Positions 2,527 to 54,078 of a stretch of DNA of 64,000 nucleotides are shown here, piece by piece. The stretch spans positions 1 through 64,000 of the IMG/VR virus record IMGVR_UViG_3300031951_000022; one strand, given 5' to 3'. This DNA is from a virus. Each line of letters starts with the position of its first letter. Within the stretch, counting starts at the first letter, position 1. The position numbers and the translations under genes were made by a program. The notes under the pieces were generated by a model that had not been told where the DNA came from, made no database searches, and worked only from the letters and a program-made list of their open reading frames with translations.

Positions 2527-3132
2527 CTACTCCTCTATAGATAGTGGTTGATTCAATTCTGTATTTAATACCATGTTGTTTTCGGTCAAAAGCCTAAATG
2601 TTTCTTGTTGTTGTTCAATAACCATTTTATAGTTTTGATTAATGGGTATAGGATTACCTATATTAAAAGTTAATTTTCCCTTAAAAGTATCTGTCATTCT
2701 AGCGGCGCTATCTTCGCCAAAATTATCAAAAGACAATACTGGATAGCTCATAGCAAAAGTATTATCATATAGGTTATATTTATTTTGTCTTATTGCAGAG
2801 GATAGCTGTTCTGTTCTGGTGGTTTCTAGTTTGTTAATACCTGTTATTAGTCCTGGCTCTAAGGCTCCACTTAATAAGTAATTATTTACTACGTTCGCCA
2901 AGGACGATGTTGTTTTCTTAGCTATTGGTCTTTTATTATTATGTACAAAAGTTCCAACACTTAAAATAGAGTCAACAAACCTATTATTTATTACTGTTGT
3001 AGCTGGGGTGTCTGCTCCTGAGAGGGAGACTGAGGATAGTTTTGTAGATTGACCAATATTAATAGCAACGCCATTATTATTGTTAGTGCTACCAGAAACT
3101 ACGGGTTGTCCGTTAACTTGGGCTATTGACAT
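2527..3132 (-). CDS. hypothetical protein, possibly structural
   Basis: 201-aa Asn/Ser/Thr-rich ORF, preceded by a CTTTGGTGTA motif. Confidence 0.55.
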   Translation of the reverse strand: MSIAQVNGQPVVSGSTNNNNGVAINIGQSTKLSSVSLSGADTPATTVINNRFVDSILSVGTFVHNNKRPIAKKTTSSLANVVNNYLLSGALEPGLITGINKLETTRTEQLSSAIRQNKYNLYDNTFAMSYPVLSFDNFGEDSAARMTDTFKGKLTFNIGNPIPINQNYKMVIEQQQETFRLLTENNMVLNTELNQPLSIEE

Positions 3133-25700: not shown

Positions 25701-26707
25701 CTAGTTTAAAACACTGACTCATAGTATCTATTAGTGTTTGAGTGTGAATATTTAAAAGAACTCTAATACCTTCTAAAGCATTAGATGTCTCGTCTGGATC
25801 TAAATCATATTCTAAAACTCCCTTACTAATACTACCAATCTGATCTGCAAAATTATATAACTGAGAAATTTCTTCTTCCAAATTAAATCGGTCTTTCATT
25901 TTATAAACTCCTACTCAATATTATATTGTTCTGGAAATAAATCTAAGTATAGATCGCCAAACAGAACCAACTCGCCGTCTGCATATTGTACTCCATAGAT
26001 CGGCAGTTGGCAAGACTCTTCTGAACTATTTTTAGTTTGTTCTTCACTATTCATATGCCACTTCCCATAACACATCATTAAAATCTTTCAAAGGATACTC
26101 CGACTGTATCATTGGATAATATCCCCATAAATATATCACGTTTCCTCTTGTCCAACCAAGTTCATCTGGTATGCAAAACCATACTGGAGTATTTGGTTCT
26201 AAAGTATAATGCTGACCAATAGGTACTAGTAATAAAATCAATAAATAAATATATTTCATTCCATACCTCCCATTAGCCACTTTTTAACATCCATAGGATG
26301 AGTACTACTAAATCTTTTAGAGGTACTAATATAACCAGCGGCAAGATCTAAAATAACATTCTGTTTTTGAATAACTCGTTCTAGATCCATATTTCTAGAC
26401 TTAAGATTATAATTATCTTGTCTACAGCTTTGAATTTCTTTATTTGCTTGAGCCATAGTATCTACTAGTCTATCAATTTCTTGATTTTTTTCTTGTTCTA
26501 GTTTTTCTAGTTTTTCTTCTAATTCTTTATAACTTTTACCCGGAGCATAAACCGTATGAGTAAATTTTTGTAACTCATCTTGATAAAGTCTAAGTTCTGT
26601 AATAATCTGTCTTAGTTCTTTATTTTTTTGAATTAATTCATCACGACTTAAATTATCATAATGAGTGCCTTTTGCAACGTCTGAATAATTATTCATTTAT
26701 TATCTCC

Positions 26708-27284
26708 TTAATTTTCTTGATTAAATAGTTTTTGTAGTTCTTTGAAACTCCAAGGCTGACCGAATGGTTTATTATAGTTAATCGTATTATCAACACCAAC
26801 GTCCAGAGTTAATCTGTTTGATATTCTATCTTCATGATCTAATTTAGAGTGAACATGACCATAACAATGAAAACTGCCTTTATGACTAGAAGGCCAACTT
26901 CTGTGAGGATAATGAGATAAAAATATTTTTTGGTTACAATGTATTATTTCTTTAACATCTTGTACTGAACTAAATCCATTCATGTCAACAGTATTATCAT
27001 CTAGATAAAAATCTTTTCTGCGGTCATGATTCCCCCATATTAAATGAACATCGCGGCAATTTATGCGAAGTCTATAGTCTAGTGGTTTTTTACCTTTAAA
27101 ACAAAAATCACCAAGTATGTATAGAGTATCATCATATCCAACAACTTCATTTATATTATCAAGAATAGTCTTGTTCATATGATGAACATCTTCAAATGGG
27201 CGATTACAGTATTTGATTATATTATTGTGACCTTGATTAGCCCGAAGGCTAACCAAAGTGAGTATCAGATATAAAATATATCAT
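26708..27284 (-). CDS. calcineurin-like metallophosphoesterase split by a 22-nt non-coding gap (27251-27230)
   Basis: [11 protein letters not shown] (27284-27252) joined to [12 protein letters not shown] (from 27229) restores DxHxGH; downstream LGD, GNHD, SHYP and GHVH motifs are intact; predicted 184 aa. Confidence 0.85.
27230..27256 (-). other. putative programmed translational bypass element (T4 gene 60-like)
   Basis: Take-off GGT, stop TAG, 10-bp stem with C(UUCG)G loop, matched landing GGT. Confidence 0.7.
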
Positions 27285-27288
27285 AATA

Positions 27289-28143
27289 TCACTTATTGTT
27301 TTTCCTTTCATATCTTTGTCCAGCTTTATATGCTAAAATGAGCGTTCTGCAAAGTTCTTGTTCCGACCAGTTTCCTGCGTAAGATTCAATCTTATCAAAT
27401 AACTCGTCTATTGTCAAGTGGTCAGCATCAATATATCTTCCATTTTTCTTTTTAATGTTATCTTTTGCTGTCAAGATTTGACAATTTGCCGGATGCCTTA
27501 AGACTTGTGGAAATACACCCAGACTAAATCCTGTTCTTCTAGACAACATATGATCTCTAACAACACCACTTGTATTATTTTTGTTATGAAAAACTCCATA
27601 CTTTTTAAGTAATCTTAATTGTTTTTTGCAATCTATAAGATCAAACATTTTCTCAATCCAATCTGCTTCTTGATAGTATATTTCAAAATCGCTTTTTTCG
27701 GATATGGGAATCCAATAGCCGTTATTTTCCATAGTTTGTCTATATTTTTGTAAATACTCTGGATTTTCCCATTTTTGTTTAGATTTAATACCAATAAGAT
27801 CTTTTGATTTTTTTGTATGAGGTCTAGAATAAGACTGTTTATCTCTATGCTTATGCATAGCTTCTATTCTTTCTTGATTAAATTTTTTACCTCTATTTGC
27901 TGTGCCATATTTATACCTAAGTTCATCAGTAACTTTTGATCTTATTAATTGTGATTGTTTCTTTTTTTGTTGTTCAGACCACCGTTTATTGAAATTAGGA
28001 TTGTTTTTTCCTTTCATTGAGGATTGCATATTTATTGCATAACATTCTTTACTACAATACACAGACTTTGCTTTCGCTTGTGAAGCATATCTATTGAATG
28101 TTTTATTACATACTGGACATTTTAATCTTAATAATTTAGACAT
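27289..28143 (-). mobile_element. free-standing homing endonuclease gene (Zn-finger, NUMOD-like repeats, C-terminal HNH-like)
   Basis: CPVC..YCSKEC, KGKNNPNF, RDHMLSR...HPANCQIL..DNIKK; flanked by two copies of the phosphoesterase 5' end. Confidence 0.7.
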
Positions 28144-28183
28144 ATTATAATCTCCTTAAAAATATAATACACCAAAGTCTGAT

Positions 28184-28222
28184 TTAATGTCCAAAATGCG
28201 TATCAGATATAAAATATATCAT
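28184..28222 (-). pseudogene. orphan 5' end of the phosphoesterase ([12 protein letters not shown])
   Basis: ATG ATA TAT TTT ATA TCT GAT ACG CAT TTT GGA CAT TAA; first 23 nt identical to 27284-27262. Confidence 0.85.
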
Positions 28223-28384
28223 GAAAAATACAAACCGTCTATCTTCTTGATAATGTTAATATAAACTTCTGGTTGCTGATGAATCTCAGTTCCTTCTGGC
28301 CCGTTATTTATTTTCTTAAGTTTATCTTCTACTAGTTCTCTTAAAATATCTAAATCTTGATTGGTTAGTTTCATATTTATCTCT

Positions 28385-31300
28385 TTACTGTAAGAATTTT
28401 TCTTTCATCAATCTATTTATTTGTAAAATATTTAATCCAACAACTTGTCCTGAATCGGTTCCAATATACAAATCTAAAACCCCATTAATATTTTTTACAT
28501 TAAAACTTTCATTTTGAAAAATTACTTCTATAGCATCCATATCTTCGCTATAAGAAGTTGCCGGAGTAAACTGACAAGGATTGTATTTTTTAAAATATTC
28601 ATCAACAGTCATGGTATTATAAACGCCACATTTTTCCAATTCTTTCCTAAAAGATTCATGTGCGTCTAAAACCCTATTAATATCAACGGCGTTTTGATGT
28701 CCTTTTAAGGGGTTATTATATTTGCCCCAACCACACCTATCATATAACTCTTGCATCTTAATATCAAGATCATCACTAAGTTCTTGATAAGTTTTGGGAG
28801 GAAACATCCAATCGAATAAACTAGTAAAACCTTTTAGGAGACTCATAATTGTTCCTTTTCTGGTCTTAATACTTTTAGTTCTATTGCTGATGTTAATAAC
28901 AAATGCTGATTATTAATATTACAGCTCTTTTTCCAATCTATAATCTTTTGTTCAACTCTGTGATAAGTTTCAGCACTTAATTTATCTACAGTAGAGAATA
29001 CTAGCACATCATCTGGTTTTAAACTCATTACTGATATTTGTGGTAGATCGTTCATTTTGATAGTATCCATAGCGTTGTGATAAATAAAGTTGCTTGAACT
29101 ATTGGAAAAACAGCAACATAAAGAGACCAACGATTAAGAGCCAAAGGAATAGCTGAACAGATAAAACAAACAATGGGAAAAGTTAATATAATCCACATCA
29201 TTATATGAGCTAACATACTATCTTGTGCTTGAGGACTATCCATGCTCATTAGTCCCGCCATTAAACAAGGTAAAAAACCAACGACCCCAAATACCAAGTT
29301 AAAAAAAGACAATACTTTTATTAGTAAAATCATTTTCTAACTCCTGCTCCACCAGTAACTAATCCAGTAAGCCACAAGGTTGCTAAATATGTCCATATAT
29401 TCATGGGAATATTAGTATGAAACAAAGTGTTAACTGCCCATATGGTTATAAATGGACAAACTATAACAAGTATAACTATAAAAATTAAGAACCAAATAAA
29501 CATATCAGTTTTCATTATTTTTCTTTCTAATTTGATATAAGTTGATACCCTTTTTGATATTTTTAATAACAGCACAGATCTTTTTTATAATATCCGTACC
29601 TGATATAGTTTTACCATCAATTATAGTATACGAATCACCAACATAAATGGCTAACTGCTCAGACGCTTTAATCATATCATCTGTGATCTGGTTGTCAAGA
29701 TATTCTAGATCGTGGCTTAGTCCTTTAATTGTCCAGCCTTTGAGTTTAAGTTCATTTCTGAGTTCTATATTTTCTTGTCTAGTTTGAGAAGTAGGTTCAA
29801 CCCAAGGAAAATCTCTGACAATCCTTTTATAGAATTCTAGATTCTTGCGGTGTCTTTTATTGCTAGTTTGAAGTTTCTTAATCTTCTTTTCTAATCTCTG
29901 AATTTTAATTTGTTCTGGCGATAGTGTTGAATAATTTTTAGCATCTGTTTTGTCAGGAAAAACTGGCCATTCTAATGCTAGTTCTTTTAAAAGATCATGA
30001 GGTTTTTTGTGAAGTATATCAAAATAAAAGGTGTCTTGGTATGAACCAGTAATTTGATGATATTTTTGCGGCCAGACTTTAGACAATTCATCCAATATAA
30101 TTTGGCCGTACCTTAATCGTTCAGATTTAGGCTTGTCACCTTGATTCGCATAAATATTCTCAATATTTTCAAGAAATTTTTTATATGTCATTTGAATCAC
30201 TATTAAAAAATGTTTCGTTACCTAAAAAACCCAAAATAAATCCCATAGAAAGCATTGCTGCAAATGGATCATTCCAATATAAACAAGAACATATAAAAAT
30301 AGCAGCAGCACTATATGCTATAATAAGTTTTTGAATTTGTGATTTAGTCATTATTATAACATCCATTCTCTTAGGTCAATTATATTAAACCAATCATATG
30401 TTTTATCAGTATTGATGTGCAAATATTGTATTTCTGGTTCTTTTTTGTATTGAATCCCATTTAGATCAAAAGTTCCGCGTTCTTTAGTTATAACTGTGAA
30501 AGAATTTATCGCTTCCTCTCTTGAGGAAAAGGTTCCTATCCAATCCTTATCGCCAGACTGAGGATAATAATCATTACCCATAGTTAATAGATAAAATTTC
30601 ATCTTCCCAAAATCCTTTCCTCTAAGAACATAAAATATCCATTATAAAATACTCTGCACATTATATCCAATATTTCTTCATCGTTTTGTGAGTTCTTGAT
30701 ACTGTATAGTAGATATTCTCTTTTGTTAGAAAATTTCGGACTACTCCAATCTATTTCGTCTAAAAAAGTTTCAAATTTTTCTCTAATACTCTTACTCATA
30801 TCAATATATAGATTCGATAGGAAAAGGTTTGTTATGTGTTTCTGGTTGTTGAACTTCTTTAAGAAATTGTTCTCCAGAAATTTTTCTTGTTATTGCTGTA
30901 AAGTTTCCATTAAATGTATAAGAGTTTCCATGATAGTCCATAAAAGTATTCTTGGTTAATTCATAAAGATTTCTGTATGTTTTCCCACTACTATCAGTAA
31001 CATCAACAACAGTATATATTTTTTGAGGATTTATTACTCTGCATGATTTAATTCCTGACCCAATAGTAATTATCAGAAATAAAATGGACAATCCAACAAC
31101 TGTTCCATGAATGAATGTAAAAAGATAGTGGTTAAATTTTCCCATTATTTTCCTATCTTAACTATTTCAAAACCCCAACCAAAAATTCTAAAATTAAAAC
31201 CTTTTCCCCAATCGTATGTATAATAATACATTTCGGTAGTTAAATTTAAAGATATACCATATTCATAAAGATCATCGCTGGGTTCCCAGTTAGTGTCAAT

Positions 31301-32836: not shown

Positions 32837-33859
32837 TTACTCTTTAAGCAAAAAATCGTTATTGATAGCCTTAAAACTAACTTCTCCACAAAAACTACGA
32901 ATAACAATTCCCTCACGATCCTGAGAATCTTTCGCAGAAGGGAAGTGGGTTTTATACTTACCCTTTGCCATCTCCAATAGATCGGTTTTAGTATATCCGA
33001 AACTTGAGCCTTTGTCAACTATAGGAACAAAATTCAAACCAAGTTGAGAGGTTACAATTAAAGATTTATCTAAACATAATTTTTGACCTGTTCTAATATC
33101 TACCACATTAAATATATAAAGATCAACATGAGATAATCCTAATGGGTTTTTTTGAATACCCGGCCCAACAACTTCTCCCTGTAATGCTAGTCTGTGACCC
33201 TTTTCCCAAAAATTCCTTAAACCCTGCTCAATATTGTATTTTCTACTTAAGACCCAAAAGTTATGGGTGTCGTTTTCTTTATAGGAGAAATTTCTTCCAC
33301 AAACATGATAAGTTTCATCTTTGGGATCAATTAAAAATGTACTAGAAGTACCATCTAATTTAAGACTAATATAATAAGGTTGTCCAGTTAATCTTTCAAT
33401 AAAACCATATTCATCATCTAATTGAACCCGTATTTCATCTGTTTTACTTATGGGCCATATGAATTTCTTAGCATCTCCAGATATAGAAGTTGGGATGGGA
33501 GGATCATATTTTTCAATACCCAATAGGTCTGTAACATCAGCCCCAGCGGTCAATCCTGCTAGTATAGGAAAGACACTTATGGGTAATGCCAAGCCCTGAC
33601 TAAGTTGTTTCTTTAATTTACAACTCTTTAAACGATATTTTTTTAGATTATCATTCCAACAACTCTTACGAAGGAATTCAAATTCTGGAAGTTCTGGAAG
33701 TAAACTATCTATCTCTATAAATAGACAAGTATCACCGGGTTGAAATTCACCCTTTTTACTAACAACTTCCCAACCTAAAACACCAACAGTTTCTATACTG
33801 TCTGCATCTGGTATAGATTTAACATATTTCACAGTTTGTATACTTGCTAGTTTTCTCAT
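32837..33859 (-). CDS. RNA ligase (Rnl2 / DRB0094 family)
   Basis: MRKLASIQ N-terminus, SQGL, KLDGTS, QGEVVGPGIQ.N, EGIVIR, FKAINNDFLLK. Confidence 0.9.
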   Translation of the reverse strand: MRKLASIQTVKYVKSIPDADSIETVGVLGWEVVSKKGEFQPGDTCLFIEIDSLLPELPEFEFLRKSCWNDNLKKYRLKSCKLKKQLSQGLALPISVFPILAGLTAGADVTDLLGIEKYDPPIPTSISGDAKKFIWPISKTDEIRVQLDDEYGFIERLTGQPYYISLKLDGTSSTFLIDPKDETYHVCGRNFSYKENDTHNFWVLSRKYNIEQGLRNFWEKGHRLALQGEVVGPGIQKNPLGLSHVDLYIFNVVDIRTGQKLCLDKSLIVTSQLGLNFVPIVDKGSSFGYTKTDLLEMAKGKYKTHFPSAKDSQDREGIVIRSFCGEVSFKAINNDFLLKE

Positions 33860-53831: not shown

Positions 53832-53865
53832 ACAAACCATCGTAACTCTAACGTCAGCCTCCGAA

Positions 53866-53939
53866 TAGGGCGTGTAGGAGTCGAACCTACCTTTTGAATA
53901 CCTTATAAGAGTATGTGCAACTACCGGCTGCAACGCCCC
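53866..53939 (-). tRNA. tRNA-Ile(UAU), atypical D-arm
   Basis: ATACT-CT-TAT-AA-GGTAT; T-arm GTAGG-TTCGACT-CCTAC; promoter at 53951-53979. Confidence 0.75.
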
Positions 53940-53991
53940 ATGTTTCTTAGATCATACTCTCTTTATCGGCTGTTGTCAACTACTTCTTTAG

Positions 53992-54078
53992 CGGAATCTG
54001 AGGGATTCGAACCCCCGGAGGATTTTAACCCTCGGCGGTTTAGTAAACCGCTGCCTTAAACCACTCGGCCAAGATTCC
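53992..54078 (-). tRNA. tRNA-Ser(ACU)
   Basis: GCGGT-TT-ACT-AA-ACCGC, long variable arm, G73. Confidence 0.85.

Follow-up and report, generated by a model that had tools for sequence, protein, structure and literature searches.

The window analysed here is the whole stretch of 64,000 nucleotides (positions 1 to 64,000 of IMG/VR record IMGVR_UViG_3300031951_000022), part of a genome of 157.7 kb. Its minus strand carries a gene for a calcineurin-like phosphoesterase that is split close to its start (Table 1). An ATG opens a frame of 11 codons that closes on GGT and meets a TAG directly afterwards; 22 nt, counted from the first base of this stop and closing in a second GGT, separate it from an open frame of 173 codons. 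The latter matches Pfam Metallophos_2 and phrog_547, has a solved relative in aq_1665, and is without its first metal motif only. Taking out the 22 nt restores that motif, DxHxGH, and leaves the rest of the enzyme undamaged. An earlier sequence-only reading of this DNA had described both the minus-strand layout and the restored motif, and on re-reading both were found as described. The same reading had overlooked what stands upstream of the split gene, namely a nuclease cassette with a duplicated gene start, and a conserved 5′ stem-loop.

Table 1. Features of the split phosphoesterase locus (positions in the window)
Feature	Position	Strand	Evidence
Orphan first copy of the phosphoesterase start, 12 residues then stop	28184..28222	-	also in L002, L432, L433, L436, L071, L211, L213 and others
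Putative free-standing homing endonuclease, 284 aa: zinc finger, NUMOD3 repeats, HNH-like C-terminal domain	27289..28143	-	Pfam hits, invariant residues
5′ stem-loop around the start codon, its 3′ end one base short of the take-off codon	27256..27294	-	-11.3 kcal/mol, z -3.9
Second gene start, 11 codons, take-off codon GGU at its end (27254-27252)	27252..27284	-	codons 2-10: pS 0.36, pN 0.044 in 18 carriers
Take-off stem of 13 bp, C(UUCG)G loop at 27246-27243	27230..27259	-	95.7% pairing over all cells, 5 pairs with both sides changed, 0/500 shuffles (shuffles can be beaten by related sequences; the pair counts are the stricter measures)
In-frame UAG stop adjoining the take-off codon on its 3′ side	27249..27251	-	read from the sequence; UGA in L434, its pairing partner changed to match
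22-nt coding gap, landing codon GGU at 27232-27230	27230..27251	-	sequence and comparison of carriers
Remainder of the calcineurin-like phosphoesterase, 173 codons, aq_1665/1XM7 family, beginning at the resume codon CAC (His)	26708..27229	-	Pfam, phrog and structural relative; GDF, GNHD, HY and GHxH motifs intact in 17/17 carriers

The genome encodes an RNA ligase (32837-33859), UvdE and ThyX, and its genes use Shine-Dalgarno sites; gene content and the use of these sites indicate a large phage, and the sites themselves point to a bacterial host. Neither a second intact copy of the phosphoesterase gene nor a Gly tRNA was found in the 157.7 kb. ARAGORN calls a tRNA-Ile (anticodon TAT) and a tRNA-Ser (anticodon ACT) at 53865-54078 (minus strand) of the window, both unusual in bacteria. 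Reassignment of the stop codon was considered and rejected, as TAG ends 17 of the 109 long frames and a TAA also follows in frame. The insert occurs in 17 other non-redundant loci from independent samples and in 3 more, and a contig from another sample runs across it unbroken with the 22 nt retained; therefore it is not an assembly artefact. Two short pieces of low identity that stop at the junction probably come from intact relatives. Two sequencing runs that may be RNA showed no joined form; their coverage was thin, and they were left out of the weighing for or against splicing.

Carriers were sought in viral and metagenome contigs, and the 22-nt gap was found at the same codon in 21 distinct phage loci (the window, 17 non-redundant loci and 3 reached via the neighbouring gene). 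Many close relatives of the gene are intact, and no cultured phage with a close relative was found (best identity 39%). Among 18 loci compared, the gap differs by at most 3 bases, and the downstream genes diverge from that of the window with dS of 0.9-2.8. The stop after the take-off codon is UAG in all carriers except one (L434), where it is UGA, and GGU serves as both take-off and landing codon in the window and 16 of the 17 other loci compared. Six relatives have a landing triplet that does not match (GGA in L071, L434, L436 and L439, GAC in L178 and AGU in the RNase HII gene L041), and a hop there would need relaxed P-site pairing. On the tree the carriers are interspersed with intact alleles (6 changes, of which 2 are forced), as expected of a mobile cassette or of repeated loss; L178 forms a long branch and its position on the tree was left unused.

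The take-off codon and the stop lie in a stem previously put at 10 bp, which in fact has 13 bp and includes the landing codon. Its folding energy is -17.6 kcal/mol (z -6.6, matched by 0 of 200 shuffles), and within the 157.7-kb genome it is both the sole UNCG/GNRA hairpin of at least 7 bp and the most stable stop-containing 32-mer. Covariation was computed on nine distinct cassettes, for which slid controls were at most 57% paired. In L434 the change from UAG to UGA is accompanied by a change of the pairing partner bases, so that both the stop and the pairing are kept. A GGC is hidden inside the hairpin and would have to be passed before landing. The likeness to the hairpin of T4 gene 60, on which the sequence-only reading had built, holds to the letter: the 14-nt core TAGCC-TTCG-GGCTA is identical to that in the T4 record.

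A second structure, the 5′ stem-loop over the start codon, is present in 19 of 19 hop carriers (median -10.4 kcal/mol, z -2.7) and is weak or absent in most intact genes. The same region in 25 intact genes has a median of -4.4 kcal/mol (z -0.3), with one intact gene folding equally well, and the nominal p of 4e-7 for this contrast overstates independence because the carriers are related. The two arms vary together between carriers, and the four orphan start copies that were tested do not form the structure. Codons 9-11 are invariant at the DNA level among 18 carriers, and the freezing of codons 8-10 at this level is explained by the stem-loop. It is also found with the 6-nt and 7-nt gap variants and with a GT9 glycosyltransferase case, both described below; a clear 5′ hairpin was not seen in the RNase HII cases. 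The stem-loop could replace the nascent-peptide signal of T4, or it could serve translational coupling only. A three-codon frame, GTG ATA TTA TGA, lies behind a purine-rich run at 27293-27282 (minus strand) of the window and shares bases with the ATG of the second start; in many carriers a similar frame is kept or the GTG is used in frame, which may couple initiation through the 5′ stem-loop.

Upstream of these elements, the ATG of the orphan start overlaps the stop of a 51-aa gene, as in the intact relatives, and the orphan copy marks the point of nuclease insertion. The gap is, on this sequence comparison, the tail of a MobA-like cassette that consists of orphan start, HNH-like nuclease, second start and gap. 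The nuclease is a putative one, identified by motifs, context and weak fold matches. Its HNH-like domain has invariant R-D-H, H-x-x-N and N residues (39 homologs), and its best structural matches are HNH nucleases with Z of 4.1 (rmsd 3.5, 71 aligned) and 3.6, which are below clear significance; Foldseek gave no match under E 0.001. It has no detectable relation to MobA, since hhalign against the MobA of the gene 60 homolog L379 returned a probability of 0.3%. All 19 distinct full or near-full homolog loci that we examined adjoin a phosphoesterase start, with the nuclease directly upstream, and the nuclease is missing beside intact close relatives. The nucleases of carriers are 45-77% identical, so the cassette is old.

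The second start is broken at the motif in 16 of these 19 loci and unbroken in 3. On dividing the 16 by size of insert, we found 22 nt in 6 loci, 24 nt in 2, 26 nt in 1, 6 nt in 1 and one extra base in 6. The gaps of 22, 24, 26 and 6 nt, which cover all frames, resume at the same His codon. The 6-nt insert (L435) makes a stop hop between two UAU codons (UAU-UAG-UAU), and the one-base inserts sit at UUU-Y or CUU-C. These last loci (L211, L213, L437, L440, L442 and L443) are candidate natural +1 frameshift sites (UUU-U, UUU-C, CUU-C or a run of 8 T) in a start supplied by the nuclease cassette, and a single-base assembly error at the same codon in all six is unlikely. In L438 the phosphoesterase is unbroken, and the nuclease homolog is an open frame only if TGA is taken as Trp. 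A distant phosphoesterase (L288, about 1478-1500) has an independent 7-nt stop-containing gap at the same motif, with a very strong 5′ hairpin (-20.7 kcal/mol, z -7.7); the gene upstream is GIY-YIG-like and decayed.

Taken on sequence evidence, the phosphoesterase gap very probably works as a programmed translational bypass, compact in form and carried by a homing-endonuclease cassette. This agrees with the hop proposed in the sequence-only reading and is argued for by the conserved in-frame stop, the covarying stem, selection on both sides of the gap, and the gaps of 22, 24, 26 and 6 nt that resume at one His codon. Excision of the 22 nt from the mRNA with joining of the ends, whether by the phage RNA ligase (as had also been suggested), as a micro-intron, or as a group I intron that begins at the orphan start and takes in the nuclease, is very unlikely. 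The phage does encode a ligase, the gap can be written as GT...AG with an internal CTAAY, the sequence behind the orphan start allows a weak P1-like pairing, and matched codons would be unnecessary, which suits L041 and L178. However, there is no Rfam intron match in 26600-28500, the cut points are 8 bp apart on a perfect stem with neither a bulge-helix-bulge nor a U.G splice pair, and the GT-AG reading fails in L439, L041 and L435 and would place a splice signal in a bacterial host, as judged by its Shine-Dalgarno sites, which has no spliceosome. Seven nuclease-less carriers with more than 1.1 kb of upstream sequence have no orphan start to splice from, and a group I catalytic core finds no room in the nuclease-less carriers, which also lack the first exon. 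Retention of the stop through a compensatory change is a further point against excision. Finally, all frames are present among the sister cassettes, and inserts of 1 and 6 bases cannot be introns, which argues for ribosomal re-pairing and not splicing.

The gap might instead be skipped when nucleic acid is copied, either by an RNA polymerase that jumps the hairpin or by its deletion between the GGT repeats in the DNA of a sub-population, which we hold to be very unlikely. A hairpin between 3-base repeats is a possible slippage substrate and one sister cassette (L437) has the 8-T run, but the repeats are of 2-3 bases only and imperfect in several carriers. Also, no allele with precise excision was present among the intact full-length genes fetched, the intact close relatives use other codons, and skipping in copying gives no reason for keeping an in-frame stop.

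Selection bears on two other readings. If the gene were dead, with the insert a scar recently spread by homing and the downstream frame not yet decayed, the mixing of carriers and intact alleles on the tree would be accounted for by a moving cassette; the enzyme is probably non-essential, and recombination could join the insert to fresh downstream DNA. Yet the downstream frame has a median dN/dS of 0.13 in 17 carriers, as compared to 0.13 in the 13 carriers without nuclease and 0.10 in 8 intact relatives, and the 17 carriers have no premature stops or broken frames and keep all catalytic and metal motifs. The decay of the downstream frame in relatives, which the sequence-only reading had named as fatal to its proposal, is thus not seen. 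The 13 nuclease-less carriers cannot home and have a pS of 0.64, and even the 60 codons adjoining their insert have a dN/dS of 0.15. With the age of the cassette against it as well, and the covariation and the 5′ hairpin left unexplained, a dead gene is highly improbable. Just as improbable is entry into the downstream frame with no hop, by a +1 frameshift, from a TTG (27256) or with the first Met as internal start, with an N-terminus that is altered or missing: although in the window the TTG leads into a +1 frame with no stop in the gap and sister cassettes appear to use +1 shifts, a TAA inside the gap closes this frame in 14 of 18 carriers (so that neither a simple frameshift nor the TTG start can be the general route), the product would have 7 extra residues in the DxHxGH metal site or lose the site, the first Met has no Shine-Dalgarno site, and the 24- and 26-nt gaps are unexplained. 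Moreover, the 17 codons from the landing site to this Met are themselves under selection (pS 0.50, pN 0.12). As the upstream mini-frame is also under selection at the protein level, both parts are translated and must be joined.

Two RNase HII genes and one GT9 glycosyltransferase gene have the same 14-nt core after a Gly codon that belongs to a motif. In RNase HII L189 the gap is of 35 nt with landing at GGU, in RNase HII L041 it is of 36 nt, ends in AGU and has a homing-endonuclease-like gene upstream, and in GT9 L130 it is of 21 nt with landing at GGC. The Pfam match of both RNase HII cases starts at model position 8, right after the gap. The idea of a portable cassette, put forward earlier, is supported by these genes to this extent; against it, a stop together with C(UUCG)G fixes most of the 14 bases, and the core also occurs after ordinary stops and between genes. 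Convergence is therefore possible, and common ancestry with T4 or among the genes is unsupported. A search of bacterial and archaeal genomes for the 18-nt core gave 7 matches, none of which splits a gene, and scans with other take-off codons returned, among the matches listed, the true gene 60 homolog L379, which served as positive control; the other matches listed were hairpins that stand between genes or behind normal stops. In L379 (about 2871-2887, minus strand), gene 39, mobA and gene 60 make up a cassette whose MobA is intact; take-off is at GGG and landing at GGA, and here too a hairpin stops two bases short of the take-off codon. In nine loci (L148, L183, L185, L187, L188, L193, L199, L207 and L356) the same hairpin stands on the stop of a frame of about 70 aa ending in WEPG; the next 60 nt or so are conserved, appear to be structured and have no Rfam match, and in L148 an RNase HI-like frame comes after. 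The PHP motif of the phage's own dnaE gene, outside the window, is interrupted by a stop-containing gap of 10 nt (about 125453-125462 of the genome, minus strand), with an HNH-like remnant upstream and a hairpin of -18.2 kcal/mol that ends exactly before the stop, like the 5′ stem-loop of the phosphoesterase; its take-off and landing triplets are not an exact match.

The closest known system is T4 gene 60 with MobA. It has in common with the phosphoesterase element a Gly take-off codon with an adjoining stop, the identical hairpin core with UNCG or UUUG loop variants, a Gly codon inside the hairpin (GGG is passed in T4, GGC here), an AU-rich 3′ part of the gap, a Gly landing codon and a 5′ stem-loop. 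Also shared are an upstream nuclease (putatively of HNH type here), a cassette-encoded copy of the target sequence and loss of the nuclease while the gap stays; the gap of the MobA element protects against the nuclease and outlives its loss (Manning and Atkins, 10.1101/2022.08.31.505936), and published MobA/gene 60 elements also swap nucleases. The differences are several. The target here is a calcineurin-like phosphoesterase and not a topoisomerase II large-subunit gene with CTE and NTE extensions, topoisomerase being the only target of the published gene 60-type cassettes (10.1101/2022.08.31.505936; 10.1101/2024.12.09.627546), and the nuclease is not related to MobA in any detectable way. 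The gap is of 22 nt (6-36 in relatives) as opposed to 50 in gene 60, the shortest predicted homolog of which has 20. Only 11 codons (13 with the GTG start) precede take-off as against 46, and there is no KKYK-type peptide, the T4 signal being about 30 residues before take-off; the earlier argument that so short a lead excludes a T4-type nascent-peptide signal is sound. A mini Shine-Dalgarno sequence (GAG, GGA, AGG or GGG) at 5-7 nt before the landing site is absent from the 22-nt gap, no 3′ barrier hairpin was found, and the landing match is looser, whereas published gene 60 homologs always keep a codon pair read by one tRNA (10.1101/2022.08.31.505936). The 5′ hairpin abuts the take-off codon (1 nt as compared to 9 nt in gene 60), covers the start codon and is conserved, which it is not in gene 60 homologs. 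From these comparisons, the element would work like gene 60, but its target gene and the absence of both a peptide signal and a mini Shine-Dalgarno sequence put it outside the MobA/gene 60 family.

Other systems share fewer traits. The 10-nt bypass in the terminase gene of Streptomyces phage Hau3 is likewise a short natural phage gap with a 5′ stem-loop proposed as stimulator; in the portion of the account of Antonov et al. (PMC10732093) drawn on here, the trigger is a rare UUA codon, the role proposed is regulatory, and neither a gene 60-type take-off hairpin nor a nuclease cassette is reported. Its junction peptide was demonstrated in E. coli. The byps of Magnusiomyces mitochondria (10.1101/2022.08.31.505936) are likewise mobile, being short hairpin inserts of 27-55 nt that carry matched codons and sit in a number of unrelated genes, with no peptide signal and no Shine-Dalgarno sequence, but they act on yeast mitochondrial ribosomes, have an unassigned sense codon in place of the stop and need no nuclease to be present, spreading as GC-cluster elements. 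Synthetic 'stop hops' (9 nt read as one residue; PMC5009743) have exactly the form of UAU-UAG-UAU in L435, which differs in being natural, in the same nuclease family and with a 5′ hairpin; a 2016 review knew no natural in-frame stop hop (PMC5009743). Searches of the open-access literature turned up no description of a phosphoesterase gene with a bypass.

The comparison of loci suggests a history in which the nuclease was inserted just after the DxHxGH codons and left the orphan start behind, the cassette having supplied a new start of 11 codons together with the 22-nt insert. By analogy with the T4 gap and MobA, this insert presumably spoils the cutting site of the nuclease itself. As for decoding, conservation and the T4 mechanism suggest that a ribosome would arrive at the GGU of codon 11 with UAG in the A site, where the UAGCC-UUCG-GGCUA tip would fold and block termination. 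The peptidyl-tRNA-Gly would then release its codon, and the 5′ stem-loop, with its 3′ arm still in the ribosome exit path, would zip up and push the ribosome forward, at the same time shutting the start site to a trailing ribosome. The tRNA would go past the GGC in the hairpin and re-pair with the GGU 22 nt on, and decoding would restart at His, so that the metal site DTHFGH comes out whole. A peptide signal like that of T4 cannot operate on a chain of only 11 residues, and RNA structure is the likely substitute. The peptide signal of T4 is worth about 9-fold (Wills et al., 10.1101/2024.12.09.627546), and by this analogy the efficiency of the hop may be low here.

We lean slightly towards a more general reading, in which a two-hairpin RNA module of about 65 nt, made of a 5′ zipper over the start codon and a T4-like take-off hairpin, would suffice with no nascent-peptide signal, would be reused by unrelated nuclease cassettes in phosphoesterase, RNase HII and GT9 genes, and would form one end of a natural series at a single codon that runs from +1 frameshift through stop hop to 26-nt bypass. 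The main new elements are the conserved 5′ stem-loop and the series of inserts of 1 to 26 nt at one codon. Few cases of programmed bypassing have been shown, and the gene 60 cassettes in print share a single topoisomerase site and rely on a lengthy nascent peptide. The present cassette takes up about 65 bases; natural variants exist in its stop codon, loop, gap length and landing codon, and it fits a reporter directly. Two questions become testable with it: what moves a ribosome forward when a peptide signal is missing, and by which route single-base frameshifts grow into a long coding gap in a nuclease cassette. A further consequence is mis-annotation, in that gene callers truncate these phage phosphoesterases at the catalytic motif, with a start about 17 codons late.
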